A DNA stretch of 64,000 nucleotides from Kiritimatiellia bacterium. Its GTDB lineage: Bacteria > Verrucomicrobiota > Kiritimatiellia > RFP12 > UBA1067. Location of the stretch: assembly GCA_045656225.1 (NCBI GenBank), contig JAZOQU010000001.1, positions 19,466 to 83,465 of the forward strand, read 5' to 3'. Shown piece by piece: positions 4,913 to 59,029 of the stretch (the stretch's first letter is position 1; each line of letters opens with the position of its first letter). The notes under the pieces were generated by a model, which worked only from the letters and a program-made list of their open reading frames with translations, did no database searches and was not told where the DNA came from. The position numbers and the translations under genes are program-made.

Positions 4913-4917
4913 ATCTT

Positions 4918-43464: not shown

Positions 43465-44361
43465 ATGAAAATAAAAAAACTCAAAGGTCTTATCGCGGCT
43501 GCTCACACAGCGTTTAACGATGACGGCAGTGTCAATTACGACGTCATCCCCAAGCAGGCTCAAATGCTTATCAAGCAGAACGTTACGGGCGTTTATGTAA
43601 GCGGAACGACAGGCGAGGGTGTCCACTGTTCCACTGAAGAGCGCAAGAAGGTTTTTGATGCCTGGACCAAAGCCGCGAAGGGTAAACTTTACCTCATCGC
43701 CCATGTGGGTTCCTTGTCGCTTCCCGATACGCAGGAACTTGCCCGCTACGCCCAGGAGATCGGTATGGATGCGACATCGATTGTGCCGCCGTGTTTCTTC
43801 CGTCCCGGTTCGATCCAGGGTCTTATCGATTATATCAACGAGGCTCTCAAGTACGCCGATAAGATTCCGTTCTATTATTACCACACATCAATGAGCGGTG
43901 TCACTTTCGATATGGAAGCGTTCTTAAAGGCGGCCGACGGCAAGATCAAGAATCTCGCCGGCATCAAGTTCAACTATCCAGATCTCTATATGTATCAGCG
44001 CTGCCTTAAGGCCTGCGGAGGTAAATATGATATCACGTGGGGTATCGACGAATGGTTTGCCGGCGCGGTCGCTCTCGGTGCTGAATCAGCCATAGGCTCC
44101 ACATACAACTATTCGGCCGGTATCTATTACAAGATTTGGGACGCCGTAAAGAAGGGCGATCTCAAAACTTCTCAGAAGCTCATGAAGAAGGTGTGCGATA
44201 TCGTCGACATTCTCGTTGAGTTCGGCGGTGTCGCCGCCGGCAAGGCGATGTGTGCTGTTCACGGTGTCGATCTCGGCACGGTCCGTGTACCGTTGAAGCC
44301 CCTTACAAAAGAGCAGAAGACCGAGATTGTCAGCCGCCTTAAAAAGATCGGGTATAAGTAA
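43465..44361 (+). CDS. nanA: N-acetylneuraminate lyase (DapA/NanA family)
   Basis: The protein is collinear with NanA/NPL (GVYVSGTTGEG; LIAHVGS; AGIKFNYPDLYMY with the Schiff-base Lys; GSTYN). Confidence 0.75.
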   Translation: MKIKKLKGLIAAAHTAFNDDGSVNYDVIPKQAQMLIKQNVTGVYVSGTTGEGVHCSTEERKKVFDAWTKAAKGKLYLIAHVGSLSLPDTQELARYAQEIGMDATSIVPPCFFRPGSIQGLIDYINEALKYADKIPFYYYHTSMSGVTFDMEAFLKAADGKIKNLAGIKFNYPDLYMYQRCLKACGGKYDITWGIDEWFAGAVALGAESAIGSTYNYSAGIYYKIWDAVKKGDLKTSQKLMKKVCDIVDILVEFGGVAAGKAMCAVHGVDLGTVRVPLKPLTKEQKTEIVSRLKKIGYK

Positions 44362-44377
44362 TAGAAATTCACAAAGT

Positions 44378-44422
44378 GAAATAAATTGAGGCAGGCCAAG
44401 TCGGCTTGCCTTAATTTATTTC
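44378..44422 (+). terminator. long hairpin after nanA (20-bp stem, 5-nt loop)
   Basis: The arm gaaataaattgaggcaggcc pairs with ggcttgccttaatttatttc (18 Watson-Crick pairs plus 2 G-U). The 3' arm is U-rich. This segment is also homologous to the leaders of the two giant genes. Confidence 0.55.
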
Positions 44423-44574
44423 ATAGTGCATAATGCCCATCGTGCTCCACGCGGTGGGTACAACTTAAGGGGAGCGCGAGGGGGTGAGAGTTGGCGTCAG
44501 GAGGGTGGATGAGTTTGGGGTGTTGATTGGATAAGTTGTTAAAATGAGTGAAAATTGCGCTTTTTATTAAGTTA

Positions 44575-44583
44575 CCCCCCCCC
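44575..44583 (+). repeat. homopolymeric C9 tract upstream of the giant gene 1 promoter
   Basis: The context gttaCCCCCCCCCatcga was counted by hand. The tract ends 17 nt before the putative -35 element. Confidence 0.9.
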
Positions 44584-44600
44584 ATCGATACTTCTAAGAG

Positions 44601-44629
44601 TTGTTTTTAGTAATTAGAATTGATAGAAT
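44601..44629 (+). promoter_or_regulatory. putative promoter TTGTTT-17-(TGa)TAGAAT of giant gene 1
   Basis: It aligns position-for-position with TTGATT-17-(TGc)TAAAAT upstream of giant gene 2. The implied leader is about 120 nt. Confidence 0.45.
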
Positions 44630-44758
44630 TTCCTAAATAATGGTCACAGGATTATGGATGAAATATGCAGTATCGAAATTGGTTAGGTAAAAGCGAGTTG
44701 AGTTAATTCGCCTTAATTGATGTTCGTGATGCATGATTCAAAAAAAACGGAGTAAGTT

Positions 44759-47700
44759 ATGCGTAGCATAGTTCGAGGGGTTGTCGCGCTATTCGCGGCA
44801 TTTTTAATGATGGATGTGGCTAAAGCCGCGCCAACGATAGTCAGCCCGGCTGATTATTCGTCGTTTTCCACATACTCTTTGGCGTTCAAGGAGATTTTGG
44901 AAGAAGGGTCGTTGGGGCCAGATGCTTATGTTTCTTCGACATGGAGCAACCCGTATTTCGGGTATACCGACTACTCGTCAGGTGCTACGGCGGCGACATC
45001 CAAACGTGTTGCCGACAGATTGCTCATGCGTGACAACGCATTGCCTGTAACATTGAAGTGGGCTGGTTCCGCCGGGCAGGTAGTGGTTAAATTGTGGCGC
45101 ACCAAGAAGGACTCTGCGAACAATCCTCAGTTTACCGTTACGACAACAGGTACGTCGGCCAAGTTTTACGACTTGGAGTTCGGGCGCAATTATACTTGGA
45201 CTGTAACCGATTCAACCGGCACTGCCACCGGTCACTTCTATATCACGAACGATAGCGGCGCGCCCCGTATTCTTCTTTACGATCACGATCCCGACGCCAG
45301 CGGAGCCGATACCTCCAATACGCGCGATATGGGCGGATGGCGCACGACAAACGGCAAGGTCGTGAAACAGGGTCTTATCTACCGTACGGCTGAGCTTGAA
45401 TGGTGCAATCCTACAGATGCGAACGGAATGCGTCAGGAATTGACTTATCTTAAGAATACTCTCGGCATCAAGTTCGATATGGATTTTCGCAATTATACCG
45501 ATCTGCAGAATAAACTGGCCTATGTCGGCGCAAATTCAATTACTGAGCATGGCTGGAGATGGGCTTGGAAGAATGGCTCTTATTTGAATTTGAATGAATC
45601 GAACATCGGCGAAGGCGTCGTCCGTTTGAATATCAATAAATTAACGGGTGTTCAGTTTGGCTCGTATACAGAGCTTATTCCTAAAAAGTCTGCTACCGCC
45701 ACGGATAACAAGGACGATAGAAAGAACGTCTGGTGCGCGTTCACGAATCTTGCCAACAGCGCGAACTGGCCTATGGTGTTCCATTGCTCCCACGGCAAGG
45801 ATCGTGCGGGAACGTTCGCTTTAGTGATTCAAGGTGTATTGGGCGTTCCTAAAGAGGCGGCCTTGAAGGATTATGCCATTTCCTGGTTCGATAGCCCGGA
45901 TGAAACATTGGGTTATCTAACAATTTCCAATACCTGCGCCAATTTGGCCACCTATGTTTCAGGCAGCAATCTTTCGACGACATATTTCAAGGATCAGTGC
46001 ATCAACTTTTTGGTGCAATGCGGCAAGGATGCGGGGCTTTCCGAAGAAACTGTCAAAACCAAGATTACGGCGTTCCAGACTGCAATGCTTGAGGATCCAG
46101 AGATGCCCGATCTTGATCCGAACTTGACATCTGCGCCAGAGACTGACGGCGATACGTTTACGTATGTAAACCTTTATCACCGCAGACATGCTGGCGGCGG
46201 AGGAGTGGCCTCTACCAATGACGCTAAGACTGAATTGAGTTACATGTATACTACAGAAACTGGAGAAACTACTCATCCGGCTCCTTCCAAATTCGACAAT
46301 TATGATGTGTGTTTGTATTTCTATCCTACAGCAGGTTTGCCATATTCAACTCCCGTTGGCGCATATTATAAGGTAGGTAAAGTTGTTTCCAACGGTTATT
46401 ATTCTCCGTCTGCTGTAGGTCCCTATAGTTTCAAGTTTTATTTTTCGAGTGCTGATCATTCCAAGTCCGACAGAACGATTATTGAGCATAGGGCAGGTGT
46501 CGGTAAATATGAAAATGTTGACCTTTACTTTACTAAGTATGATTCGTCAAACTTAGGTGAAGGCGGTCGAAATTTGGCATACGTTTATACTGGTAGCAGT
46601 GCAGCTATTGAAGTATGGGCTAATGCTACAATGCGCATTATGGATATGAGGGATATGTCCCAGTTGCGCAGCGCGAAGGGTTACAAGGCTTATATCAAGT
46701 TCCCTAAAGGTAGGTGTGCCAATGCGCGCTTAGAAGCACTTGAGACTGATCGAGGTGACAGGTGTTCGCTCGGCTGGTTCACTGGCGGTGAAGCCGGAAC
46801 GCGCCAGTACATGAAGGTTAGCAATACATTGCTTGAGTTCAATGCGCCTAACAAGACGAGTACGGTGGAGGGTTCTCTCGGTCTTGAATTCTCATTGGGC
46901 AGCGTGAATACAACTTCAAGTCAGGCGATGCTCAAGGTCGCAGATAAGCTTGTAATTCCCGCAGGTTCGACCATTACTGTCAACGCAGGTCGCAAGGGCG
47001 CCGGCACCTACAGGCTTATTCAGGCTGGCACCCTGATTGATAACGCCAACCTCACCTTAAGGACCAACTACAAAGTTGACAACTGCAAGATTGGCTATTA
47101 TGGTACTATTGTTAATGATGGCAATAACCTTAACCTCGTCGTTCAAGAGGGTGAACCACCAGAGGAGGATCCTGAGGATATCGGGGATGCTGATGAAGGT
47201 GATTGGGGCTATAGAGTTAGAGGCTTAGGCGCTCTTAAGAATGAGACGGCTCTTGTATTTACCAATAGTGCTAAGACGGCTAACTGGGTAGTTCCCTCGA
47301 ATCTTGAGAATGTTCAGTTCCTCGTAGTCGGCGGCGGCGGTGGCGGCGGCGCTGATACTTGCGCGTCTGACGCATACTCTGGCGGCGGCGGTGGCGGCGG
47401 CGGCGGCGTAGTTACAGGTCTCGTTTCGTTTGCTGAGAATTCTTATGTCACTATTACTGTAGGTAAGGGCGGTGCCGGCGGTACTGAGGAAACGAAGTAC
47501 AATAGTCAATACGGTGCGTCAGCTTCGGGTGGCAATAGTATGTTTATTACAAGTGATGGACTTAGGGCGACTGCGTTTGGCGGTGGCGGCTCAGGCGGCA
47601 TTAGCGGCGGGACAAAAGTTCGCACTACAGTTGAATCTGGTCCAGCGGGCGGCTCAACGGCTGGTGGTCGCGCTAAGTCAGATGCCGATAAGAATACATT

Positions 47701-50700
47701 CGCTGGCCCTGTCGCTACAGCAACTAAGGGCGAAGTCGTCGGCATAACCGTTTATGGAACGATGGGTAATAACGGTGGTGAGAGTACTGGTAATTATGCC
47801 GGCGCCGGCGGCGGCGGCGCTATGGGTAAGGGCGATGATACAACCGGGGATGCTGCGAATGGCGGACCTGGCTATGAGTCTAATATTACCGGTAGTCGCG
47901 CTGTTTATGGTTCAGGCGGCGGCGGATCTGTTATTACTGGTGTCGGTGGCTTAGGTGGTGAAGGCGCTGGTAATGGTAATAGTTCGGCTGGTGCTTCTGG
48001 TACTGACGGCTTAGCTAACCAGGGTGGCGGCGGCGGCGCTGGTGGCCGTGGTGATTTAGATAGCGTTACTAAAGGCGGTAATGGCGGCTCGGGTATCGTA
48101 GTTATTCGCTATGTTGATGAGGCTGGTTCGCCTGATGATCCCGATGCTCCCGTCGTCAAGATCGCTTCAGATCCTGCGGTCATCCCTAATCTTGTGTACA
48201 ACGGTAATGAGCAGAACGGTGTTATTGCCGGAGAGGGATATGTTCTCTCGGGCGTCACAAAGGCCACATTCGCCGGCACTTACGAGGCGGTAGCTACGCT
48301 CAAGTCCGGTTATACGTGGTCTGATGGAGCGACTGAAGCGAAGACTCTAACATGGGCGATCGCGCAGTTCTCGAATTCTTGGACGATCGAACCTTCGATT
48401 TCGTTGGATTCGTGGATTTCGGGGGGCGCGGCAGGTGAACTTATTGCTGGTGTAGCTCGGTTTGGCGGTGTTCCAACTGGAGTATTTGTGAAGGGCGGCG
48501 AAGGTGAGTTTACAACTATGCCGACCGCGCCTGGCGAATACGAAGTTAAGTTTACAATCCCTGAGACGAGCGATTGGACAGGATTGACCAAGACGGTTGC
48601 GTTTACGATCCTTGAGCCGGGCGAAATCAATCCTACTGAGTATGGTACAGCCGATTCTGCGGAATCGACTTATGCGTGGATTGGGTATACTGGGCCTTGG
48701 ATGTATACGACTAACTGGACGGCTACAGCTAGCGGAACGTATGGAGTACCTAATAACGGAACATACGCGACGGCGGACTTCCCCGCGACGCGCGAGAATG
48801 AGTTTACTTGTACGCTTAACCAGAGTGTTGCGGTTAATAAGGCTGAATTTAATTCGCCTAATATGACATTCGTTTTAGATAATGCGCTCCTAACCCTTAA
48901 AGGTAAGGTTGATAGCTATGCAGCGTGCGACTTCGGTGATGGTGAAAACGATAATTCCACCATTGAATTGAGAGGCGCTAACGCTGGAATTGTTTCAGAC
49001 ACTAAAGAAGTTCGTCTCAATTTTGGCTATCGCCATGGTGAAGTGACTCCAACTGGTATTGTAACTGTTCGCTTCGTTGTTCCTGAAACCGGTTGGGAAA
49101 GCGATGCGAGACTTAAAGCAACGGGTATAGATTCTAAGGTTGTTTTTTATGCCAACTCTAAGCTCGAGATCGATGCGACGGCTCTTGGTGTTCCAGCCGA
49201 AGGCACGACAAAGACCGTTTATCTTGCTTCGGGTACGGGCGATGATGGCGTTTATGTTGAGTCCAAGACGACTAATATCGTATGCGCAGCAGGCGCGAAG
49301 GGTTCTATTAAGATAGAGTCTAAGAAGCTTGTTCTTACGGTTGAGGCCGATGAGATGACTGAGCCTGATGAGCCTCAGGAGCCTCAGTTGACGGCGGTTG
49401 ACGCGCCTGTCGCTCAGGTTGGTCTCGTTTACACGGGCCTTGAGTTGACGGGTGTTGAAAGCGGCACTGGTTATACGCTTACAGGTAATACGGCGACTGA
49501 CGCGGGCGAGTATATCGCCATAGCTACGCTCGCTGAAGGGTATAAGTGGTCTGATGGCTCGACTGATAATAAGGAAATTAGTTGGTCTATCGCTAAGGCG
49601 ACGAACGAGTGGACGACAGAGCCTTCGATTTCTCTCGAGTCCTGGACTCAGGGCGAGACAGCTGGCGTTTTAACGGCTGGTGTCGCTAAGTTCGGTACGG
49701 TTACAGCTTCAATGACTGAGCTCCCGACTGAAGTTGGTTCTTATACGATTACTTATACGGTAGCTGAGACTAAGAACTATACTGGTCTTACCGCGACTGT
49801 TCAGTTCGAGATTAAAGAGACTGAAAACGTTGGTCCAGGTGGAGATGCTAGTGATGATGAGGAAGATCCGATTGCTGTAATTGATGCGAACATGAAGAAG
49901 AACGGTTGGGGATATGTAAAGACTGGTCTTGGCGATCTTAAAAATGAAGTAGCTATTGTCTTCACTAACCATGTTGACAAGACTATGTCTTGGACCGTTC
50001 CTGATACGATCGAAAACGTCCAGTTCCTCGTCGTCGGCGGTGGCGGCGGTGGCGGCGGTTGTATTAGAAAGGGATCTAACTATGTTAAGAATGATGATGA
50101 AGGCGGCGCTGGCGGCGGCGGCGGCGGCGTAGTCACTGGATTGGTTAAATTTAATAAGGGTGATGTTGTAAGTGTTGCTGTCGGTGTTGGTGGTACTGGC
50201 GGTACTGGAGCGGATAATACTTCTACCGGTGGTGCTGGTGCTGGTACGAATGGTGGCGAAAGTAATTTTTATGTAGGTAACAACTTGTATATTAAGGCAT
50301 TTGGCGGTGGTGGAGATGGCGGATATGAGAGGGCTGGCGCTGTAGGCGGTTCCAGTGCCGGATGCCGTCCTAACAAAACCAGCGCGTCTCGTTCTGAAAC
50401 TAATATTGGAACTAAAGGTTCTAATGCAACAGCATATCTCTCGAATGTTGTGTTTAGGGGTTATACTGGAGGCGCAGGTTATACGTCTTGTACATCTGGC
50501 GGTGGCGGCGGTGCAACAGCTGCTGGTACTAAACCCTCAAACTCAGGTTATGGTGGTTATGGTGGAGCTGGTCTTACATTAAGTATTGCTGATGATATTG
50601 CTGTTACTTATGGTTCTGGCGGCGGCGGCGGTACTGCTAGGGATACTGGTGGCGGCGGTATGGGAGGTGATGGTGCTGGCGATGGCGGCGCTCGAGAAGG

Positions 50701-52753
50701 AAATACAGATCTTAATGGCGTCTCTGGTGCCCCAAATCAGGGTGGCGGCGGTGGCGGCGGTTCTTGGAATCAAGAGATTAGTACAACAACTTTCGGTAAT
50801 GGTGGGAATGGCGGCTCTGGTATCGTTGTCTTCCGCTATACGATTAAGAGCGAGGTAAAGGTAGATCCAGTTGAATATATTCAGTCTAAGATTTCCGACA
50901 AATATTATACTGGTATGCTTCAGACTTCTGGATTGACCGAAAATGAGGCTTATACAGTATCTGAAGTTGGCGGGATTAATGCGGGAGAGTATGAGCTTGA
51001 GGTTACGCTTAAGTCTGGCTTTGTATGGGCTGATGATTATCCGAATAAGCGTCGTATCTTCAATTGGAATATTCTCAAGGAGCCTAATAACTGGAAGACT
51101 CCGATGGCGCTTTCAGTCAAGAGTTGGGCACAGCATTATGCAGCCAATGTCAAGTTTGTTAAGCCCGTTCAGACGATTGGCGAGCTTAATGCCACGATTA
51201 CCAAGGATGGCGTAACAGAAACTTTTAACGGAACTTTACCTGTTGAGCCTGGCGTATACACTCTCAAATATTGGGTCGAAGAGAACGCTCTTAACTACAA
51301 CGGTTGCTCGTGTGAGGTTACATTTGTTATCTATCGTTCTGAGTCGATTGACGGAGGCTATAAGGTCTTTGGTCTTGGCGAAAAGGGTAATGAAGAGGCT
51401 ATGGTATTTACTGAGTCGGGTAACTGGACTCTTGATAAGAGCCTTAACAATGTTCAGTTCCTCGTAGTCGGCGGTGGCGGCGGCGGTGGTGCTGACAATA
51501 GTAAAACATCGGATCAACGTCAAGGCGGCTCTGGCGGTGGTGGCGGCGGTGTTGTTACAGGACTTGTCAATTTTGTCAGTGGTCAGACGATAACGGTTAC
51601 TGTCGGTGCCGGTGGTCAGGGCGGTGAACGTGGCGGTTCAACAAGTCCCTACGGTGCTGTAAAGACTCAGGCTGAGAATTCTTCGTTTGCTATTGGTACT
51701 GCAACATCTGTAGTTGCGTTTGCTGGTGGTGGAGATACCGGATCTACTAGTGATTCTTCAGATTCTACTGGCGGACAGACTGGCGGAAACGGCGGATCGG
51801 GCGCTGGTTCGCGTGCTACTGCGACTGGACGCGGCGAAGCTACTTGCGGCAATGTAAATGATACTGCGAAGGCTATTGTCTGCTCCAATACTCTCGGCAA
51901 TGACGGTGGCGCTGGCGCAGCAAAATACCAGGCCGGCGGCGGCGGCGGCGCTACTGCTGAAGGTGGCGCTGGCACAGAAGACGCCGGCGGTAATGGCGGT
52001 GAAGGCTTAGCCTCTAATATTATCGGTACAGACCTCGTTTACGGCTCCGGTGGTGGCGGTGGTGCCGTAGCTGGTGGCGCACAAGGTCCTGGCTTTGGCG
52101 GTAGTGGTGCTGGCAATGGCGGTCATGAAACAGAAGCTACTTCGGCTGTTCCCAATCAGGGTGGCGGCGGCGGTGGCGGCGGCCGCGCTGGTAACGGCGG
52201 CAACGGCGGCTCGGGTATCGTAGTGTTCCGCTATGTCGTTCTTAAATCTCCGACGATTGGAGATTCGCCTGTGGATGCAGCCGAGGCATTCGAAATCGCG
52301 AAGGTCTCCAAGCCTGTTCTCTATCCCAGCGAGCCTGAAGTTTCGACCAACACGGTTGACGGCGTTAAGGTTGTGACGGTGGCTTTTGGCGGCGTTAATG
52401 CTCCGGTTCCTGATTGCTATGACGTAATCAAGAGCGTCACAGATAAAGGCTATCAGATCAGTCTTGTGATCAAGGATGAGTTTAAGAATCCTACGATTGC
52501 CGACTCTGCTGATGATGAGACTCCGGCGATCAAGATTGAGAACGGTAAGGTTAAGATTCATCTTGAGGGAACTCACGAAAAACTTCATTATTCGCTCATG
52601 ACATCGACATCGATCGATCCAAGTGCAACTTGGACGACGGCGGAAGGCGATTGGACTGACAACGCCAACTTTGAGTTCGGCGATGGAGTTCAGAAGCTTG
52701 ATGACGTTCGCTTCTTCAAGGTGGGTGAAGTTTCCGACGAGCCGATAGAATAA
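44759..52753 (+). CDS. giant secreted multidomain protein 1 (2664 aa): phosphatase-like head, beta-helix-type segment, three polyglycine modules, three tandem Ig-like pairs, conserved C-terminal domain
   Basis: A GGAG lies upstream. The signal peptide is MRSIVRGVVALFAAFLMMDVAKA/AP. The Cys-X5-Arg motif is FHCSHGKDRAGT (Cys codon 45785-45787). The ORF is uninterrupted for 7995 nt and is followed by a strong terminator. Confidence 0.9.
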   Translation: MRSIVRGVVALFAAFLMMDVAKAAPTIVSPADYSSFSTYSLAFKEILEEGSLGPDAYVSSTWSNPYFGYTDYSSGATAATSKRVADRLLMRDNALPVTLKWAGSAGQVVVKLWRTKKDSANNPQFTVTTTGTSAKFYDLEFGRNYTWTVTDSTGTATGHFYITNDSGAPRILLYDHDPDASGADTSNTRDMGGWRTTNGKVVKQGLIYRTAELEWCNPTDANGMRQELTYLKNTLGIKFDMDFRNYTDLQNKLAYVGANSITEHGWRWAWKNGSYLNLNESNIGEGVVRLNINKLTGVQFGSYTELIPKKSATATDNKDDRKNVWCAFTNLANSANWPMVFHCSHGKDRAGTFALVIQGVLGVPKEAALKDYAISWFDSPDETLGYLTISNTCANLATYVSGSNLSTTYFKDQCINFLVQCGKDAGLSEETVKTKITAFQTAMLEDPEMPDLDPNLTSAPETDGDTFTYVNLYHRRHAGGGGVASTNDAKTELSYMYTTETGETTHPAPSKFDNYDVCLYFYPTAGLPYSTPVGAYYKVGKVVSNGYYSPSAVGPYSFKFYFSSADHSKSDRTIIEHRAGVGKYENVDLYFTKYDSSNLGEGGRNLAYVYTGSSAAIEVWANATMRIMDMRDMSQLRSAKGYKAYIKFPKGRCANARLEALETDRGDRCSLGWFTGGEAGTRQYMKVSNTLLEFNAPNKTSTVEGSLGLEFSLGSVNTTSSQAMLKVADKLVIPAGSTITVNAGRKGAGTYRLIQAGTLIDNANLTLRTNYKVDNCKIGYYGTIVNDGNNLNLVVQEGEPPEEDPEDIGDADEGDWGYRVRGLGALKNETALVFTNSAKTANWVVPSNLENVQFLVVGGGGGGGADTCASDAYSGGGGGGGGGVVTGLVSFAENSYVTITVGKGGAGGTEETKYNSQYGASASGGNSMFITSDGLRATAFGGGGSGGISGGTKVRTTVESGPAGGSTAGGRAKSDADKNTFAGPVATATKGEVVGITVYGTMGNNGGESTGNYAGAGGGGAMGKGDDTTGDAANGGPGYESNITGSRAVYGSGGGGSVITGVGGLGGEGAGNGNSSAGASGTDGLANQGGGGGAGGRGDLDSVTKGGNGGSGIVVIRYVDEAGSPDDPDAPVVKIASDPAVIPNLVYNGNEQNGVIAGEGYVLSGVTKATFAGTYEAVATLKSGYTWSDGATEAKTLTWAIAQFSNSWTIEPSISLDSWISGGAAGELIAGVARFGGVPTGVFVKGGEGEFTTMPTAPGEYEVKFTIPETSDWTGLTKTVAFTILEPGEINPTEYGTADSAESTYAWIGYTGPWMYTTNWTATASGTYGVPNNGTYATADFPATRENEFTCTLNQSVAVNKAEFNSPNMTFVLDNALLTLKGKVDSYAACDFGDGENDNSTIELRGANAGIVSDTKEVRLNFGYRHGEVTPTGIVTVRFVVPETGWESDARLKATGIDSKVVFYANSKLEIDATALGVPAEGTTKTVYLASGTGDDGVYVESKTTNIVCAAGAKGSIKIESKKLVLTVEADEMTEPDEPQEPQLTAVDAPVAQVGLVYTGLELTGVESGTGYTLTGNTATDAGEYIAIATLAEGYKWSDGSTDNKEISWSIAKATNEWTTEPSISLESWTQGETAGVLTAGVAKFGTVTASMTELPTEVGSYTITYTVAETKNYTGLTATVQFEIKETENVGPGGDASDDEEDPIAVIDANMKKNGWGYVKTGLGDLKNEVAIVFTNHVDKTMSWTVPDTIENVQFLVVGGGGGGGGCIRKGSNYVKNDDEGGAGGGGGGVVTGLVKFNKGDVVSVAVGVGGTGGTGADNTSTGGAGAGTNGGESNFYVGNNLYIKAFGGGGDGGYERAGAVGGSSAGCRPNKTSASRSETNIGTKGSNATAYLSNVVFRGYTGGAGYTSCTSGGGGGATAAGTKPSNSGYGGYGGAGLTLSIADDIAVTYGSGGGGGTARDTGGGGMGGDGAGDGGAREGNTDLNGVSGAPNQGGGGGGGSWNQEISTTTFGNGGNGGSGIVVFRYTIKSEVKVDPVEYIQSKISDKYYTGMLQTSGLTENEAYTVSEVGGINAGEYELEVTLKSGFVWADDYPNKRRIFNWNILKEPNNWKTPMALSVKSWAQHYAANVKFVKPVQTIGELNATITKDGVTETFNGTLPVEPGVYTLKYWVEENALNYNGCSCEVTFVIYRSESIDGGYKVFGLGEKGNEEAMVFTESGNWTLDKSLNNVQFLVVGGGGGGGADNSKTSDQRQGGSGGGGGGVVTGLVNFVSGQTITVTVGAGGQGGERGGSTSPYGAVKTQAENSSFAIGTATSVVAFAGGGDTGSTSDSSDSTGGQTGGNGGSGAGSRATATGRGEATCGNVNDTAKAIVCSNTLGNDGGAGAAKYQAGGGGGATAEGGAGTEDAGGNGGEGLASNIIGTDLVYGSGGGGGAVAGGAQGPGFGGSGAGNGGHETEATSAVPNQGGGGGGGGRAGNGGNGGSGIVVFRYVVLKSPTIGDSPVDAAEAFEIAKVSKPVLYPSEPEVSTNTVDGVKVVTVAFGGVNAPVPDCYDVIKSVTDKGYQISLVIKDEFKNPTIADSADDETPAIKIENGKVKIHLEGTHEKLHYSLMTSTSIDPSATWTTAEGDWTDNANFEFGDGVQKLDDVRFFKVGEVSDEPIE
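47204..48112 (+). repeat. polyglycine module 1 of giant protein 1 (~303 aa)
   Basis: The module starts WGYRVRGLGALKNETALVFTN..WVVPSNLENVQFLVVGGGGGGG. It contains GGGGGGGGGVVTGLV, AFGGGGSGG, YGSGGGGS and NQGGGGGAGG. It ends GGNGGSGIVVIRY. Confidence 0.85.
48178..48614 (+). repeat. tandem Ig-like (MBG-like) pair A
   Basis: The sequence LVYNGNEQNG..AGTYEAVATLKSGYTWSDG..TWAIAQFSNSWTIEPSISLDSW..PGEYEVKFTIPETSDWTGLTKTVAFTILE is paralogous to 49388-49819, 50903-51334 and 56558-56989. Confidence 0.7.
49388..49819 (+). repeat. tandem Ig-like (MBG-like) pair B; best-conserved nucleotide tract shared with giant gene 2
   Basis: This 432-nt tract is collinear with 56558-56989, which has the same length. 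It includes identical runs such as tcgctaaggcgacgaacgagtggacgac and atgactgagctcccgac. Confidence 0.8.
49907..50839 (+). repeat. polyglycine module 2 of giant protein 1 (~311 aa)
   Basis: The module starts WGYVKTGLGDLKNEVAIVFTN..WTVPDTIENVQFLVVGGGGGGGG and ends GNGGNGGSGIVVFRY. Confidence 0.85.
50903..51334 (+). repeat. tandem Ig-like (MBG-like) pair C (most divergent)
   Basis: The sequence is YYTGMLQTSG..AGEYELEVTLKSGFVWADD..NWNILKEPNNWKTPMALSVKSW..PGVYTLKYWVEENALNYNGCSCEVTFVIY. Confidence 0.6.
51359..52234 (+). repeat. polyglycine module 3 of giant protein 1 (~292 aa)
   Basis: The module starts YKVFGLGEKGNEEAMVFTE..WTLDKSLNNVQFLVVGGGGGGG and ends GNGGNGGSGIVVFRY. The 26-mer aatgttcagttcctcgtagtcggcgg is identical to the one in module 1. 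Confidence 0.85.
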
Positions 52754-52776
52754 ACATAAATTATAGAGTAGAAACG

Positions 52777-52808
52777 CGAGCCTCCTTAAAAAAGGGGGCT
52801 CGTTTTTT
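52777..52808 (+). terminator. rho-independent terminator of giant gene 1
   Basis: The stem cgagcctcc / gggggctcg has an 8-nt A-rich loop and is followed by T6. It is nearly identical to the terminator at 58996-59029. Confidence 0.85.
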
Positions 52809-52937
52809 AATTTCATTTATTAATCCTATATAAGTAGCGCGAGGCGTTGAAAAGGCGCGATAGAAGAGATGACTGTTTTGGTATGTAAAATTATATATGA
52901 TAAAAAAGTGTAGGACTTTTAATTTTTCATTAACTTA

Positions 52938-52947
52938 CCCCCCCCCC
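52938..52947 (+). repeat. homopolymeric C10 tract upstream of the giant gene 2 promoter
   Basis: The context acttaCCCCCCCCCCtcga was counted by hand. Its position relative to the -10 is the same as for the C9 tract of gene 1. Confidence 0.9.
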
Positions 52948-52963
52948 TCGACGTTTCTGAGAT

Positions 52964-52992
52964 TTGATTTTTGAAAATTAGAGTGCTAAAAT
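52964..52992 (+). promoter_or_regulatory. putative promoter TTGATT-17-(TGc)TAAAAT of giant gene 2
   Basis: It is homologous in position and sequence to 44601-44629. The implied leader is about 120 nt. Confidence 0.45.
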
Positions 52993-53116
52993 TGCAATTG
53001 CGTATAGCAATTTTGGGTTTTGTATTGTGAATTTGATTAGGTTGTCTGCAAGCCGAGGCGACTTGCCTTAATCAGTATTGCAATGCATTAATTCAATTAA
53101 AATGGAGTAAATAATT

Positions 53117-56100
53117 ATGCGAAGTATAATTCGAGGTGTTGTCGCTTTATTCGCGGCATTTTTAATGATGGATGTGGCTAATGCCGCGCCAACGATAGTT
53201 AGCCCAGTCGATTATTCGACGGTTCAGACATTAACGGATTCAATGAAGAACTTAATAAGTCCGTTGAATTCAGATGTTTCAATTTTTAGTAAAGCTAATA
53301 CTACTGCGCGTGACAATTATGAAACGGAGTATTTTTATAACAACTCAGTTCCCGCCACCTTGTCATGGAGCGGCACTACAGGTGATTGCACCGTTAAGGT
53401 TTGGCGTACGAACGGCGGTAGCGAAAGCGCTCCGTTCTTTAGCGAAACGGTTTCAGGTACTTCAACCGAATGTTACAACCTTGAAGTAGGGTGCAACTAT
53501 ACATGGAAAGTTACCGATTCTCAGGGTAATTCCGCTGTCGGTCACTTCTTTACCGAAGATCAGGCGCCTCGTATTATTCGCGGTCGTAGAAGCAATTTTA
53601 CTTATACGTCCGGCGCTGACTGTTCTAACGGTCGTGATATCGGCGGATGGGCTACAGCTGACGGCAAGCGCGTCAAACAGGGTAAGATATATCGCTCTGG
53701 ACAGCTTGAATATTGCTCATTTAAGGAAGGATCAGGTATTTATCAGAAGATGGATATGCTCTACGATGTGCTCGGCATTCGCGTAGATGTTGATCTTAGA
53801 ACTGTAGAAAATGTTAATGCGTTTGCAGATTGGAAGGCTGAATGGGATACGGGCTCTGATAATGTTTGTAAATGGTCTGGCATCGGCCCTGATGTAGAGC
53901 GATTCACCATTGAATGGGAAACTCTCGGTAAGGGACCTTCTGAAGGTAATCCGTACGTATATGATGGTAAGTATGGTTGCCAGTTCCCCTCGTATAGCGG
54001 TTTTTATAATAGTATGTCTATAGATTATAAAGTAGGCGATACGACAAAAACATATACTCAGACTGCAGCACAGAATAAGATTGCGGTGTGGGCGGCGTTC
54101 AACAGAATTTATCAAGCTGTTGTTGTAGATAAAGAGCCTGTGCTCTTCCATTGTTCACACGGTAAGGATCGCACAGGTTCGCTCGCTTTGGTGATTCATG
54201 GTCTTCTCGGTGTTTCAGAAGCGAATATTAAAAGAGATTTCGCAACGGCTTGGTTCTGCAATCCGGATTATACATTCACGCAGACCAGCATGAATAATAT
54301 GATTACTGGGCTTAAGAATTTAGATACTGCTTCTACTAAGACTCTCGCTGGTGGTTGCGAAAACTATTTGATCAGTTGTGCGACCTCGGCCGGTGATACG
54401 GCTGGTGCTACTAAGGTTGCGGCGTTTAAGTCTGCGATGTTAGAGGATGTCGAGACTGCGGCAGAAAATCCCAATCAGGAATTGGCTTCGACTGTCTCTT
54501 CCGCTATAGCTTCGTATGTAACTTATCCTACGCCTAAATTTACGGTTAGCGGCTCTATAGCTCTTGGGACCGGCACTACGACCGCGATGCTTTATTATTC
54601 GCTTAACAGCAGTGATTGTGATCAGACTGCTGAACTTACTCTTGGTGAGGACGGGACGTTTTCTTATGATATTGATTATGTAAATCCGACAGATACGCTT
54701 ACATGGTATGTTTCGGTTACAACGGTTAATGAAGGTAAGAGCGTTACAAATCAGACTAATTCGGCTACTGTAACGCGTACGAGAGATTCTGGTAATATTA
54801 CTTATTGTTGGACAGGTGCTGCTGGTGATGGTAAGTGGTCCAATATGGCGAACTGGACTGCCGATACTACGTATGACGCGTGGGGGTATCCTGGTCTTAT
54901 TGATGCGAATAGTGCGTATTATCGTTCTACTACTAAATTTGATTCACGCGCCAATAATGCTGTTATCGACCTTGAAGGTAATGCATATCAGGGAAGAGAT
55001 GGCAATGACGCTATGATCTTTGATTCAAATGTTGGCCCTGTTACATTGAAAAACGGTACCTTCTATTTCAATAAAAGTGGTACTACAATTGGTGCGTCTG
55101 GTGCTGTCATTGTATTTGACGGCATGGTCCTCAATAGAAGTAGCGGGTATACATCATTCACGTTGACATCGGCAAGTGGCTTTACGATGCGATTTGTCGG
55201 AGATCAAACTTATGTTGAAGGTGGATTGATATTTAGCGGTACGTATGGCTTTACTATTCCCGCTGAAGGACTTGGAGCTGCTCCTCTTAAAGCGAAGACA
55301 TTGACTGCTGGTGCTGCGACTATTGAAGTCGATGTTACGGATTATACAGCTGCGGGCCAGATTCCTCTTATGACATTCACGGGAACGGTTTCTGATCCAA
55401 GGAGTTCGTTGACGCTCGTTACGAAGGTTAATGGTCAGACAGTAACTGGTCGTGGTGAACTTGTTTGGAGTTCTAAGACCCTTTATTATAAACAGGATAA
55501 GCAGGAAGTTGTTGATCCTGATCAGCCTGGCGGCGAAACTCCTGAAACTCCTGAAACTCCTGAAATTCCACCAAGTGAGGGCGGTGTAACTACTAACGCA
55601 ATGGCTGATGCTTCATGGGGTTATATCGTCACGGGGCTTGGCGACAATCATAATGAGACGGCTGTAGTATTTACGAACGAGAATGCGACGGCGATGACCT
55701 GGACCATACCCGAAACTCTCAATAATGTTCAATTCCTCGCTGTCGGCGGTGGCGGTGGTGCTGGTGGTGCTGCGTCATATCATACATCTTCTGGCAAATA
55801 TAACCGCGGCGGTGCCGGCGGTGGTGGCGGCGGTGTTGTCACTGGCTTGGTTGACTTTGTCGATGGGTCTATAGTGTCGGTAACAGTCGGCAAAGGTGGC
55901 GAAGGCGGTGTTCGAGTAAACAATACTACGAATGGTACGGCAGCTGCAAAAAGTGCAGGTGGTAAATCCTCATTTTCTGTAAATGATATTAGCTATGTTA
56001 TAGCTCGCGGCGGTGGCAGAGATCTTGGTCTTGGCAAGAGTGGTGGTTATGGCGGGTCTAATGCAGGAAGTCGAACGACCAGTAGGCAGGAAAAGTTTTC

Positions 56101-58969
56101 GTGGCTAGATACTGATGTTAATACGACTTATATAACTGCGTATGAGAAACTTGGTAATTATGGCGGTGTGGCGTATTCAAAAAATAACAATGTGCGAGCT
56201 GGCGCCGGTGGCGGCGGTGCTACAGAAGAGGGTGCATCTTGCACTGATCAAGATAATGCTGCTAAGGGTGGTAAAGGCCTTGCCTCTGATATTACAGGCG
56301 TAAGCGCAGTATATGGCTCAGGCGGCGGTGGCGGATCTGGATATAATGGTGTCGGTGCGTCTGGCGGTAGTGATGAAGCTGGTGCTGGCGGTAACTCTTC
56401 ATCAAGTACAACTCCTAATGATGGTGGAGATGGTCTTGCGAACTACGGTGGTGGCGGCGGCGGCGCTGGCCGTGAAGGTAAAGGCGGTAACGGTGGCTCG
56501 GGTATCGTTGTCTTCCGTTATACAACTACGCCTACGACCGAACCTGATGTGCCTGTCTTGACGGCGGTTGATGCGCCTGTGGCTGTTGCTGACCTCGTTT
56601 ATACTGGTTCTGAGTTGACGGGTGTTGTTGCAGCTGACGGTTACACGCTTACCGGTAATACTGCTACGGATGCTGGAACTTACGAGGCAACGGCTACGCT
56701 CGCTGAAGGCTATAAGTGGTCTGACGATACGACTGAGCTTAAGACAATCAGCTGGTCGATCGCTAAGGCGACGAACGAGTGGACGACCGAGCCCTCGATC
56801 TCTCTCGAGACCTGGACTCAGGGTGAAACGGCCGGCGTTTTAACATCTGGTGTCGCTAAGTTCGGCGAGGTTACATCTACGATGACTGAGCTCCCGACGG
56901 CTGTTGGTAAGTATACGATCACTTACACGGTAGTCGAGACCGATAACTATAGTGGTCTTACTAAGGAGGTTTCGTTCGAAATTCTTAAGAAGCCCACTTC
57001 TTACGACTTCACGGTCGGCGATGTTGCTCTTACTGACGGTAAGCTTACCTTCAAGGGTAATTTCGCGATTGACGGCGAATCCGAAGCGACCGAGATGAAT
57101 CTCGTAGTAAGCGTTTACGATGTTGCCGAGGGTGGTGACGCTCTTAAGATGGTTACTGTTGAGGGTATTCCAGCTGGCGAATTCAATCAGGAGATTGATA
57201 TTGCCGCGCTTGAACTCGCTGACGGCGTATATTATCTCGCCTTCGAGGTTCAGGACGAAGCCGGTAATGTTCTCGACAAGGTCGAAGAGCGCTCGATGCT
57301 CACCATCGGCGAGGTTAAGGCTGTTAAGCCTACGGTCAATTACGCGAGCGGAACTAAGTTTACGGCTATCGGTGTTGAGCAGAAGCCGGTCGTAACGCCT
57401 GCTGACGGTAATGGTTACACGGTCAGCTACGAAGGCGACTTCACTTCTGCCGGCACTCATAGAATCGTTATCGCGCTTAAGGACGGTTGGACTTGGAGCG
57501 ACGGAACGAGCGACAGCTTAACGTATGAGTACGAGTTCATTGAACGTACATATACTGAGTATTATATCAAGTCACGTGGAGGAGCCTCAGATGGAGGTAC
57601 TTACCAGTCGAATGACCGTTGGTATACTGATCCTGAGTTTGCTGCTGGTTCTAAGATGTCCACATGTCCTAATGTGTATGATGCTCATAATATTGCCAAC
57701 ATCCCCTCTGACTCACAGTGCTGGCTCTTGATTGATAACGAAGAGGACATTGTTGTTACGCCTAAGTTCGGTAAATTTACCGTTGATGGTAATCTCCGTA
57801 TAGTTACATACAGCGGCGCATTGATGTTCCAGAATGATACGGCTACACCTATGCCGATCTGGGAGGTTAAATCAGGCGTCTCCACTATTGACGGTGTCGT
57901 CTTTGACGTAAATGGCGCTGGTACCGGTTATATTGATATTGCCGCTAATGCCACAAATGTTCTAGGCGGTGTTAACTATAAGAGTGGGTTAGAATCGAGC
58001 AAGAAGCTCTTCGTTCGCTTCAGCGATGAAGCTACGGCGGGTTCGGCACTTCGCGTTCATGATTTCGAAAGCTACTACGCTACAAATCTCGGCTGGTTTG
58101 AGGGCGGCGCTGAAGGTTCGACTTACACGTTGGATTTTGACGAGGGCGCTTTAAATCTCACCAATCCCGATGCTGTCAGCGGTGTTGCCGGCGATCTCGC
58201 GATTACCGTAAAGCTCGGCGATAGGGTTGGCGCGGAGAATGCCTACCTTAATGTTGCGGGTACGCTCAATATCAACGAGGGCTCAACTCTCGCGGTTGAC
58301 GCTAACAGCATGCCTTGCGGCGTTTACACGATCATCAATGCCGCGACATTCAACGGCGCCGATCTCTTGACGAGCGCTGCGGGCGCTACGGTAACGGGTC
58401 TCGCCGAGTTTACGAGCGGTGAGCTCGTTCGCGAAGGCAATAAGATCGTACTCTATATCGAGACGACGATCCCGCCGAGAGTTCCCGGTATTGAAGGGGA
58501 TTCTGTCGCGACGAACGCCGTATTCGAGACAGCTCGTGTCGCTAAGCCGATCTGGTATAAGACTATGCCTGCGATCAACGGTGATGAGATTACGTTTAAC
58601 CGCGTCACGGTTAAGGTTCCCGAGTACTATGACGTTACCTTGGAAACTTTGGCTGACGGCTATCTCGTAAATCTCAAGCTTAAGGACAACCTCAAGGCCT
58701 TCATCGCCAATAAGGTTGAGAACGATCAGATCGTGACACCTGCCATCAGGATTGAGAACGAAAAGGTCTATATCCACCTTGAGAACACCAAGTCGGATCT
58801 CTATTATACGCTTTTGAAGTCGACTAAGCTCGGCGCTGAAGCTGAATGGAAGCCGACCGAAGAGTATGCGATAGGTAAGGCCGACTTTGAGTACACGCCT
58901 GCGGAAGGTGAAGCCGAGACATGCTTCTTCAAGGCGGGCGACGTAATGGACGAGCCACCGGCAAAGTAA
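53117..58969 (+). CDS. giant secreted multidomain protein 2 (1950 aa), paralog of protein 1 with one polyglycine module
   Basis: The signal peptide MRSIIRGVVALFAAFLMMDVANA/AP is about 90% identical to gene 1 at nucleotide level over the first ~100 nt, by eye. The Cys-X5-Arg motif is FHCSHGKDRTGS (Cys codon 54152-54154). It shares the C-terminal domain and the terminator. Confidence 0.9.
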   Translation: MRSIIRGVVALFAAFLMMDVANAAPTIVSPVDYSTVQTLTDSMKNLISPLNSDVSIFSKANTTARDNYETEYFYNNSVPATLSWSGTTGDCTVKVWRTNGGSESAPFFSETVSGTSTECYNLEVGCNYTWKVTDSQGNSAVGHFFTEDQAPRIIRGRRSNFTYTSGADCSNGRDIGGWATADGKRVKQGKIYRSGQLEYCSFKEGSGIYQKMDMLYDVLGIRVDVDLRTVENVNAFADWKAEWDTGSDNVCKWSGIGPDVERFTIEWETLGKGPSEGNPYVYDGKYGCQFPSYSGFYNSMSIDYKVGDTTKTYTQTAAQNKIAVWAAFNRIYQAVVVDKEPVLFHCSHGKDRTGSLALVIHGLLGVSEANIKRDFATAWFCNPDYTFTQTSMNNMITGLKNLDTASTKTLAGGCENYLISCATSAGDTAGATKVAAFKSAMLEDVETAAENPNQELASTVSSAIASYVTYPTPKFTVSGSIALGTGTTTAMLYYSLNSSDCDQTAELTLGEDGTFSYDIDYVNPTDTLTWYVSVTTVNEGKSVTNQTNSATVTRTRDSGNITYCWTGAAGDGKWSNMANWTADTTYDAWGYPGLIDANSAYYRSTTKFDSRANNAVIDLEGNAYQGRDGNDAMIFDSNVGPVTLKNGTFYFNKSGTTIGASGAVIVFDGMVLNRSSGYTSFTLTSASGFTMRFVGDQTYVEGGLIFSGTYGFTIPAEGLGAAPLKAKTLTAGAATIEVDVTDYTAAGQIPLMTFTGTVSDPRSSLTLVTKVNGQTVTGRGELVWSSKTLYYKQDKQEVVDPDQPGGETPETPETPEIPPSEGGVTTNAMADASWGYIVTGLGDNHNETAVVFTNENATAMTWTIPETLNNVQFLAVGGGGGAGGAASYHTSSGKYNRGGAGGGGGGVVTGLVDFVDGSIVSVTVGKGGEGGVRVNNTTNGTAAAKSAGGKSSFSVNDISYVIARGGGRDLGLGKSGGYGGSNAGSRTTSRQEKFSWLDTDVNTTYITAYEKLGNYGGVAYSKNNNVRAGAGGGGATEEGASCTDQDNAAKGGKGLASDITGVSAVYGSGGGGGSGYNGVGASGGSDEAGAGGNSSSSTTPNDGGDGLANYGGGGGGAGREGKGGNGGSGIVVFRYTTTPTTEPDVPVLTAVDAPVAVADLVYTGSELTGVVAADGYTLTGNTATDAGTYEATATLAEGYKWSDDTTELKTISWSIAKATNEWTTEPSISLETWTQGETAGVLTSGVAKFGEVTSTMTELPTAVGKYTITYTVVETDNYSGLTKEVSFEILKKPTSYDFTVGDVALTDGKLTFKGNFAIDGESEATEMNLVVSVYDVAEGGDALKMVTVEGIPAGEFNQEIDIAALELADGVYYLAFEVQDEAGNVLDKVEERSMLTIGEVKAVKPTVNYASGTKFTAIGVEQKPVVTPADGNGYTVSYEGDFTSAGTHRIVIALKDGWTWSDGTSDSLTYEYEFIERTYTEYYIKSRGGASDGGTYQSNDRWYTDPEFAAGSKMSTCPNVYDAHNIANIPSDSQCWLLIDNEEDIVVTPKFGKFTVDGNLRIVTYSGALMFQNDTATPMPIWEVKSGVSTIDGVVFDVNGAGTGYIDIAANATNVLGGVNYKSGLESSKKLFVRFSDEATAGSALRVHDFESYYATNLGWFEGGAEGSTYTLDFDEGALNLTNPDAVSGVAGDLAITVKLGDRVGAENAYLNVAGTLNINEGSTLAVDANSMPCGVYTIINAATFNGADLLTSAAGATVTGLAEFTSGELVREGNKIVLYIETTIPPRVPGIEGDSVATNAVFETARVAKPIWYKTMPAINGDEITFNRVTVKVPEYYDVTLETLADGYLVNLKLKDNLKAFIANKVENDQIVTPAIRIENEKVYIHLENTKSDLYYTLLKSTKLGAEAEWKPTEEYAIGKADFEYTPAEGEAETCFFKAGDVMDEPPAK
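55616..56521 (+). repeat. polyglycine module of giant protein 2 (~302 aa)
   Basis: The module starts WGYIVTGLGDNHNETAVVFTN..WTIPETLNNVQFLAVGGGGGAGG and ends GKGGNGGSGIVVFRY. Confidence 0.85.
56558..56989 (+). repeat. tandem Ig-like (MBG-like) pair of giant protein 2
   Basis: This is the 432-nt counterpart of 49388-49819 (LVYTGSELTGV..AGTYEATATLAEGYKWSDD..SWSIAKATNEWTTEPSISLETWTQGETAG..). Confidence 0.8.
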
Positions 58970-58995
58970 GAATTGTATTAACTAGATGCTAAAAA

Positions 58996-59029
58996 CGAGC
59001 CTCCTTTAAAAAGGGGGCTCGTTTTTTTT
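58996..59029 (+). terminator. rho-independent terminator of giant gene 2
   Basis: The stem cgagcctcc / gggggctcg has an 8-nt loop and is followed by T8. Confidence 0.85.

Follow-up and report, generated by a model that had tools for sequence, protein, structure and literature searches.

Two tandem genes for giant secreted proteins with a phosphatase head point to a recombining, probably phase-variable family of surface exoproteins in ruminant-hindgut Kiritimatiellae

The stretch of DNA analysed here (hereafter the window) comprises 64,000 nt of a Kiritimatiellia bacterium (assembly GCA_045656225.1, contig JAZOQU010000001.1, positions 19,466-83,465 of the forward strand). Between positions 44,575 and 59,029 of the window lies a locus with two large open reading frames (ORFs) on the + strand: gene 1 (44759..52753), which encodes a 2664-aa exoprotein (P1), and gene 2 (53117..58969), which encodes a 1950-aa exoprotein (P2). 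On balance, and with modest confidence, we read the two proteins as members of a lineage-specific, multi-copy and recombining family of giant surface exoproteins of ruminant-hindgut Kiritimatiellae, probably phase-variable and carrying a phosphatase head. Three rival explanations, which are weighed below beside the evidence that bears on them, fit fewer of the observations. An earlier note, made from the DNA without database searches, had described two adjacent giant ORFs on the same strand, each built as a self-contained cassette. Both ORFs and their paralogy were confirmed, the N-terminal 1300 residues of P1 and P2 being 36% identical. Unless stated otherwise, positions are those of the window and all features are on the + strand.

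Both proteins start with a Sec-type signal peptide with an AxA cleavage site (gene 1, 44759-44827; gene 2, 53117-53185). The signal peptides follow the pattern MRSI[VI]RGVVALFAAFLMMDVA[KN]A/APTIVSP and agree at 28 of 30 residues, which bears out the near-identity reported previously. The same note had placed a beta-sandwich-like segment and then a Cys-X5-Arg phosphatase-like domain at the N-terminus, and these were indeed found: an FN3-like domain (44828-45253 in gene 1, 53186-53596 in gene 2) is followed by a PtpB-like phosphatase domain (45254-46168 and 53597-54526, respectively). The expected Pfam family, Y_phosphatase3 (PF13350), was obtained in P1 (85.9 bits, E 5.6e-24) and in P2 (94.4 bits, E 1.4e-26), against a gathering cut-off of 22.2 bits. 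An intact CX5R P-loop, HCSHGKDR, is present at aa 342 of P1 (45782-45805) and at aa 345 of P2 (54149-54172). In a 12-sequence alignment (A1), residues H345, C346, G349, K350, D351, R352, D226 and R228 are invariant, and the catalytic residues are kept in 51 of 54 homologues. Because the P-loop (HCxHGKDR[TA]G), the RD[IL]GG motif and the D-x-R acid motif are all invariant in the family, the phosphatase domain looks catalytically intact and competent.

Structure prediction agreed with the domain assignment. An AlphaFold 2 (AF2) model of P2 residues 1-400, computed with a 12-sequence alignment, reached a mean confidence (pLDDT) of 79 and contained the signal helix, an FN3-like sandwich and a protein tyrosine phosphatase (PTP) fold. 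When the modelled N-terminus was searched with Foldseek, the top ranks went to the PTP of C. difficile (8DHJ/8DHI, E 7.5e-7) and to PtpB of M. tuberculosis (2OZ5, E 1.5e-4); Siw14, TpbA and FN3 domains came next. The family profile, searched against the PDB, found 8dhi at 7.9e-17 and, through the P-loop HCxxGKDRTG, M. tuberculosis PtpB. The C. difficile PTP (8DHI/8DHJ), PtpB and the LipA-type phosphatases of Listeria share with P1 and P2 the Cys-phosphatase fold, this P-loop and the RDxGG and DxR motifs. PtpB and LipA are secreted. All three are single-domain proteins of ~250-300 aa, whereas the domain forms here the N-terminal head of a 2000-2700-aa exoprotein of a gut commensal, and sequence identity is only ~17-19%.

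Beyond the head, the proteins consist largely of repeated modules. Gly_rich_2 (PF21722; cut-off 24.3 bits) matched three stretches of P1 (206 bits, E 1.1e-60) and one of P2 (70.6 bits), so the earlier count of glycine-rich modules (three for gene 1, one for gene 2) was correct. The modules, delimited by PF21722 and by their start and end motifs (VQFLVVGGGGGGG ... GGNGGSGIVVFRY), are ~300 aa long and lie at 47177..48112, 49883-50839 and 51317-52234 in gene 1 and at 55592-56521 in gene 2. A search of the PDB sequences with one such module matched no solved structure. The tandem Ig-like pairs that had been proposed are also present, at a length of ~170 aa and with internal repeats that are 30-45% identical: pairs 1 to 3 of gene 1 occupy 48095..48634, 49328-49837 and 50819-51352, and gene 2 has one pair (56504-57004) and further Ig-like domains (57005-57544). 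The glycine-rich modules are, however, not all flanked by such pairs on both sides, as the earlier description had it. Ig-type Pfam matches within the pairs were sub-threshold only. Residues 1538-1685 of P1 and 1142-1289 of P2 are 78% identical, far above the 35-45% found elsewhere, and this Ig pair points to a recent exchange.

A segment with a W-x-G..W..NW motif was said to follow the phosphatase. This holds for gene 2 (aa 565; 54782-55516) and fails for gene 1, in which the segment starts at aa 1307 (48635-49327), beyond the first glycine-rich module and its Ig pair. Each protein also has a beta-rich segment (46169-47158 in gene 1, without Pfam assignment; 57545-58486 in gene 2). Four Pfam families had been predicted for the pair, and PF13350 was the one that proved right. 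Gly_rich (PF12810) gave no match at E <= 0.1, the glycine-rich family being PF21722; PATR (PF12951) matched neither the whole proteins (E <= 0.1) nor the isolated W-x-G..NW segments (E <= 1); and for MBG (PF18676) the best score was 14.5 bits to MBG_2 (E 0.056), for one segment alone, against a cut-off of 25 bits.

Pfam covers just two domain types in each protein (PF13350 and PF21722) and leaves ~60% of each without assignment, a search of both whole proteins against NCBIfam returned no match, and PDB matches were confined to the phosphatase. The view that this combination of parts is undescribed is upheld by these searches, and a full-text search of the literature found no paper on the domain combination or on glycine-rich or C-terminal-domain proteins of Kiritimatiellae. 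RTX adhesins, Bap and BspA-type leucine-rich repeat (LRR) proteins resemble P1 and P2 in size, in their repeated Ig-like modules and in their presumed action at the surface; unlike these, P1 and P2 contain no RTX, autotransporter or LRR domains by Pfam scan, and an enzymatic head together with Gly_rich_2 modules is unusual for the group.

The glycine-rich modules raise the question of a phage ancestry. They match PHROG 2295 at 6.9e-107 and, more weakly, the tail-related PHROGs 863 and 754, and Gly_rich_2 proteins, phage tail proteins of these three PHROGs among them, contain the same ~300-aa module. The proteins might accordingly be derivatives of phage or tailocin tail fibres, or effectors of contact-dependent antagonism, with the glycine-rich modules recognising bacteria. 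We regard this as quite unlikely. Here the module occurs in one to three copies among Ig pairs, in chromosomal genes that also encode a phosphatase and a C-terminal domain; the catalytic domain is N-terminal; and a small downstream ORF that could encode an immunity protein is not conserved. A tblastn search of 50,697 phage records with the glycine-rich module gave no match, although the low-complexity filter was on and may hide matches. The flanking genes are housekeeping genes (accD/accA, dapA, an alpha/beta-hydrolase gene, tRNA-Pro and an M18 peptidase gene, and at a greater distance genes for UvrD, a V-ATPase subunit and an MFS transporter), with no phage, immunity or secretion genes nearby. 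This matches the earlier statement that no secretion or chaperone gene stands beside the pair. Because of the same neighbours, an origin of the locus as a prophage or mobile island was rejected.

Both proteins end in a shared C-terminal domain (CTD), at 52226..52750 in gene 1 and 58442-58966 in gene 2, as delimited by the family alignment and the AF2 model. The last ~160 residues are 36% identical between P1 and P2 and close with FFKVGEV in P1 and FFKAGDV in P2, in accordance with the shared FFK[VA]G[ED]V ending described before. Across the family the conserved unit is the final 175 residues (alignment A2). The AF2 model of the CTD (pLDDT 88.5) consists of a short helix and two beta-sandwiches; searched against the PDB and BFVD, this fold gave nothing at E <= 1e-3 and resembled only generic tandem FN3 domains. 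The isolated CTD matched no NCBIfam family even at E <= 10 and nothing significant in Pfam, and none of the known C-terminal sorting models in these two databases (type IX secretion system (T9SS) Por_Secre_tail A/B, PEP-CTERM, LPXTG) matched it. The tails that follow F[FY][KR]V are acidic and proline-rich, with no hydrophobic stretch or transmembrane helix; the terminal hydrophobic helix and basic tail of the exosortase and sortase type are not present.

The distribution of the CTD is wide. Among 1.84 billion representative proteins, a CTD profile matched 245 clusters, of which 119 reached E <= 1e-10. In the best 150 of the 245, the CTD stands at the C-terminus or within ~25 residues of it, in proteins of 80-4500 aa that mostly have N-terminal signal peptides and the tail motif F[FY][KR]VxVxD; a hydrophobic anchor is absent from all of these. 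A Pfam scan of 50 CTD proteins found Gly_rich_2 (9 proteins), Listeria-Bacteroides repeats (4) and, in the majority, nothing known; other cargo included DUF4886, BspA-type LRR, polysaccharide deacetylase, LD-carboxypeptidase, GDSL lipase and PATR domains. Within the window, the CTD was found solely in P1 and P2. A word-indexed search with the CTD profile returned 5 matches only, too few for taxonomy, and a cluster look-up of nine proteins from the CTD search and of P0022 (gene 1 itself) gave no useful names. Because it is terminal in hundreds of otherwise unrelated secreted proteins, the CTD appears to behave like a sorting or anchor domain, and it is the best candidate for such a role in P1 and P2. 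The earlier remark that no anchoring gene is visible was therefore right as to secretion genes nearby and overlooked the CTD as an anchor candidate. Some of the CTD proteins (within P0080-P0198) form groups with near-identical signal peptides of their own, for example MKRVALTLFAALCVGSVWA and MKKLLITTMAAVSVGLCAKA, and the pattern of conserved signal peptide, variable body and conserved CTD may be general in these organisms.

Relatives of the two proteins were sought in 5.8 billion proteins. The search found 52 clusters, all with PF13350 and PF21722 and all metagenomic; the only names among them were 'MAG: tyrosine-protein phosphatase, partial [Kiritimatiellae bacterium]'. In a scan of one genome per GTDB species, full-length relatives of the N-terminal part occurred only in five Kiritimatiellae metagenome-assembled genomes (MAGs), from sheep rectum and yak cecum and rectum, two of which hold at least four and at least seven family copies, respectively; the remaining matches were ordinary small PF13350 proteins of Clostridia and others. 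Members are mosaics: the N-terminal half of P0010 is P1-like and its C-terminal half P2-like, and P0016 combines a P2-like N-terminus (88%) with P1 residues 1289-1536 (92%). Close relatives of P2 are found singly, behind smc-nusB or at other sites, and relatives of P1 lie between VWA genes and argG-grpE; there are several such chromosomal slots, and the same site holds different alleles in different samples. The tandem pair itself is not conserved, and the idea of a conserved two-gene system was rejected because relatives stand singly at other chromosomal sites.

Two observations concern the surroundings of family members. In contigs L090-L092 (8004-9152) and L107 (7312-7410), a 382-aa gene with weak similarity to Y1_Tnp (IS200/RAYT-like) lies a short way downstream of family members; a link to the mobility of the cassettes or to boxes of the repetitive extragenic palindrome (REP) type is conceivable. 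Downstream of the P2 orthologue in L001 (15950-16129), inverted CCCCAAGGGGAC(A)GTCCCC repeats are accompanied by a run of ATGTAAC motifs.

An intact Cys-phosphatase behind a signal peptide, in bacteria of the ruminant hindgut, would also suit a released enzyme. The proteins would then be soluble, nutrient-scavenging phosphatases acting on phytate or phosphorylated glycans, with substrate bound by the glycine-rich and Ig-like modules and the CTD, and with the poly-C tract upstream of the genes (see below) as a fixed element. The GDSL lipase/esterase domains that some family members also carry, and CTD cargo such as polysaccharide deacetylase and peptidase, would fit this picture. We consider it improbable, if the best placed of the three rivals. 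A length of 2000-2700 aa, of which at least 60% is non-catalytic repeats, as well as mosaicism and many paralogues, is more typical of surface and adhesion proteins; the domain matches PF13350 and not the PTP-like phytase family; and the poly-C length does vary.

The surface-exoprotein reading draws its regulatory part from the DNA around the two genes. Each cassette has the same order: a box, a poly-C tract, a promoter with an extended -10 element, a structured 5' untranslated region (UTR), the ORF and a terminator. To judge from these signals, the two genes are transcribed autonomously, each as a unit of its own. The 5' boundary of cassette 1 is the box GCGCGAGG (44474..44492, 285 nt upstream of the ATG) and that of cassette 2 is the box GCGCGAGGCGTTGAAAAGG (52837..52855), which stands 280 nt before the ATG. 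Most paralogues, including those of L001, L005, L006, L009, L015, L016 and L019, also have the box, 250-300 nt before their ATG. Written as GCGCGAGG(G/C)GTTGAAAAGG, the box that marks the 5' edge of the cassette includes a possible small hairpin (GCGAG...CTCGC). Its role could be that of a site for an activator, of a REP-like element or of a boundary for recombination.

The poly-C region and TGn-extended -10 reported upstream of each gene are present at both. In gene 1, nine C follow TTA (C9, 44575..44583; TTA-C9, 44572-44583) and end 17 nt upstream of the -35 element; in gene 2, ten C follow TTA (C10, 52938..52947; TTA-C10, 52935-52947) and end 16 nt upstream of it. Since C9-A of gene 1 corresponds to C10 of gene 2 with one substitution, the distance from TTA to the -35 element is equal in both. 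A promoter scan found the gene 2 promoter (52964..52992: TTGATT, 17-nt spacer, TG-extended TAAAAT). The putative gene 1 promoter (44601..44629: -35 TTGTTT, 17-nt spacer, TG-extended -10 TGaTAGAAT) was read from the sequence and is positionally homologous to it. Downstream, the same intrinsic terminator follows each gene, as stated earlier: in gene 1 at 52776..52809 (hairpin 52776-52803, 12-bp stem, T-run) and in gene 2 at 58996..59029 (hairpin 58996-59021 and T-run).

In the window and the first five related loci, C or G runs of at least 7 occur only upstream of family genes. By counts, the two poly-C matches do not exclude chance (13 of 100 shuffles gave at least two); chance is excluded because the tracts are conserved at homologous positions in paralogues and orthologues. 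Their length could be compared among alleles at the smc-nusB slot: allele P0025 has C7 (4 copies), P0002 has C9 (3 copies), P0004 has C10 (2 copies, and two Logan contigs that end inside the tract), and P0007 has C10 in 3 copies and C11 in 2. The C10 and C11 copies of P0007 differ by 0 substitutions over 5.5 kb, and because they are otherwise identical the tract appears to be hypermutable and the fastest-changing position of the locus, as slipped-strand mispairing predicts. Among the Logan single-run contigs, L101, L102 (position 1) and L004 (14-23) end inside the tract or a few bases before it; such ends would be expected if reads were heterogeneous or poor there, and are no more than a hint of mixed populations. 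When JGI metagenomes were scanned for the exact DNA pattern of the poly-C promoter, there were 0 matches.

Phase variation through promoter homopolymers is known from Vlp of Mycoplasma hyorhinis (poly-A), Opc of Neisseria meningitidis (poly-C) and fim of Bordetella (poly-C). The present cassettes resemble these systems in being multi-copy, in combining a conserved promoter, leader and signal peptide with variable bodies, and in a promoter homopolymer that varies between otherwise identical copies. Like that of Bordetella fim, the tract lies upstream of the -35 element and not in the spacer; it is carried by some paralogues only, and the encoded proteins exceed Vlp and Opc in size by a factor of 10-50. 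The cassettes are probably phase-variable.

Several points weigh against this reading of the family. The tract lengths are those of assembly consensus sequences, so sequencing error in homopolymers is possible. The length is constant in three of the alleles (C7 in 4 copies, C9 in 3 and C10 in 2), so switching is not very fast. Many members have no poly-C (those of the VWA-argG slot, L007 and L009-L012), and a tract that stands upstream of the -35 element, and not in the spacer, would require an upstream factor to affect expression. The family members are known from metagenomes only, with no cultured strain, and the anchor or sorting role proposed for the CTD is read from its position and distribution, its fold being generic.

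If the differences in poly-C length were assembly artefacts and the leader hairpin (see below) just stabilised mRNA, the proteins could be constitutive structural components of the envelope, of an S-layer-like or sheath-like kind. Large genes with strong terminators and consensus-like promoters would be expected of such components, and several copies have no tract. This explanation, too, has little probability in our estimate: four to seven mosaic paralogues with enzymatic heads are unlike the usual single dominant S-layer gene, and the tract length of an allele is reproduced in independent samples, with differences from one allele to another, which argues against random error.

The conserved ~120-nt leader that had been proposed exists in both genes, and it is the structure more than the sequence that is shared. 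Leaders were aligned from twelve, then sixteen, paralogous 5' UTRs. The alignment folds into an imperfect hairpin of ~70 nt with 24 pairs, in which 94.9% of cells are paired and 9 pairs show compensatory changes; 0 of 500 shuffles reached any of the main measures, and slid controls were 27-47% paired. The frequent G-U pairs suggest a sense-strand RNA. The covariance model (R1) placed the hairpin at 44648..44734 in gene 1 (77.4 bits) and at 53003..53088 in gene 2 (83.5 bits), and in the related loci searched it matched upstream of family genes only. Rfam gave no match at the gathering threshold across the window and none at E <= 1 for 44380-44800. The hairpin could stabilise the transcript, aid processive transcription of the 6-8-kb genes or bind a protein.

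A third, orphan leader hairpin, which was outside the training set of R1, was found at 44353..44431 (42.4 bits, E 1.1e-7), where it overlaps the dapA stop codon (44361). In contig L111 (3-667), the same dapA end and an orphan-type leader directly precede an intact family gene, a different allele of the P0044 type. Compared with L111, the window has an extra module of ~280 bp (44432-44709) that contains the GCGCGAGG box with the poly-C tract and the promoter, together with the 5' half of a new leader. It follows from this comparison that the dapA site is a conserved slot and that the promoter/poly-C module is an insertion/deletion polymorphism.

Taken as a mechanism, the surface-exoprotein reading would run as follows. 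After Sec export, the CTD would direct the protein to the cell surface or hold it there, and the phosphatase would sit at the distal tip of a stalk rich in Ig-like and other beta domains, with the glycine-rich modules as its ligand-binding parts. The protein would attach to a partner surface, be it that of the host, of a feed particle or of a different microbe, and remove phosphate from some component there. By slippage, the poly-C tract would set upstream sequences nearer to the core promoter or farther from it, and the altered spacing would switch or tune the expression of single copies. Exchange of modules between paralogues and replacement of alleles at fixed slots would diversify the exposed parts, and the leader hairpin would probably serve in one of the first two roles named above.

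A bolder and more tentative proposal, which we consider possible without favouring it, is that the CTD is the cargo tag of an undescribed outer-membrane export or attachment pathway of Kiritimatiellae, an analogue of the T9SS CTD, with the phosphatase giants as flagship cargo and with a two-part cis control (the ~280-bp poly-C module that is gained or lost, and the new leader RNA) for which there would be no described counterpart. The CTDs of the T9SS in Bacteroidota are likewise folded beta-sandwiches at the extreme C-terminus of many unrelated signal-peptide proteins of one lineage. The present domain differs from them in matching no Pfam or NCBIfam sorting model at E <= 10, in being about twice as long (two sandwiches) and in its host, which belongs to the PVC group.

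The locus had also been called the most atypical part of the window in composition. Its GC content deviates only mildly (0.45-0.51 against ~0.52-0.59 elsewhere, with a second low-GC stretch of 0.466 at 28-30 kb), and its GC skew is the highest in the window. Elsewhere in the window, ORFs of 887, 434 and 563 aa (4804-7464, 19310-20611 and 28120-29808) have no Pfam match at E <= 1e-5. A 742-aa protein (1522-3747) has BPL_N/GATase-like domains, and BPL_N is also present in one CTD-bearing protein from elsewhere. An ORF with AAA-ATPase_like and PDDEXK_9 domains (17358-18914) sits in a region of ~50% GC (16-36 kb), compared with 57-59% GC at the start of the window.

Each ingredient of these cassettes has precedents, namely secreted PF13350 phosphatases, Gly_rich_2 proteins, sorting domains and surface-protein families under homopolymer control; the resources queried contain no description of the domain combination, of the CTD or of the leader RNA. 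In ruminants and horses, Kiritimatiellae form an abundant but almost entirely uncultured part of the gut microbiota, and to our knowledge nothing is known of their cell surface. If the reading holds, the family would be the first candidate surface or adhesion repertoire of Kiritimatiellae and a candidate strategy of immune or phage evasion. The CTD would be a candidate sorting domain that defines the exoproteome of the group, with at least 245 protein clusters, most of them without a Pfam domain, and the leader would be a new cis-regulatory RNA motif, well supported by covariation. A phosphatase of the PtpB type, known from pathogens as a secreted effector, would have an unusual use as the head of giant surface proteins in a commensal.

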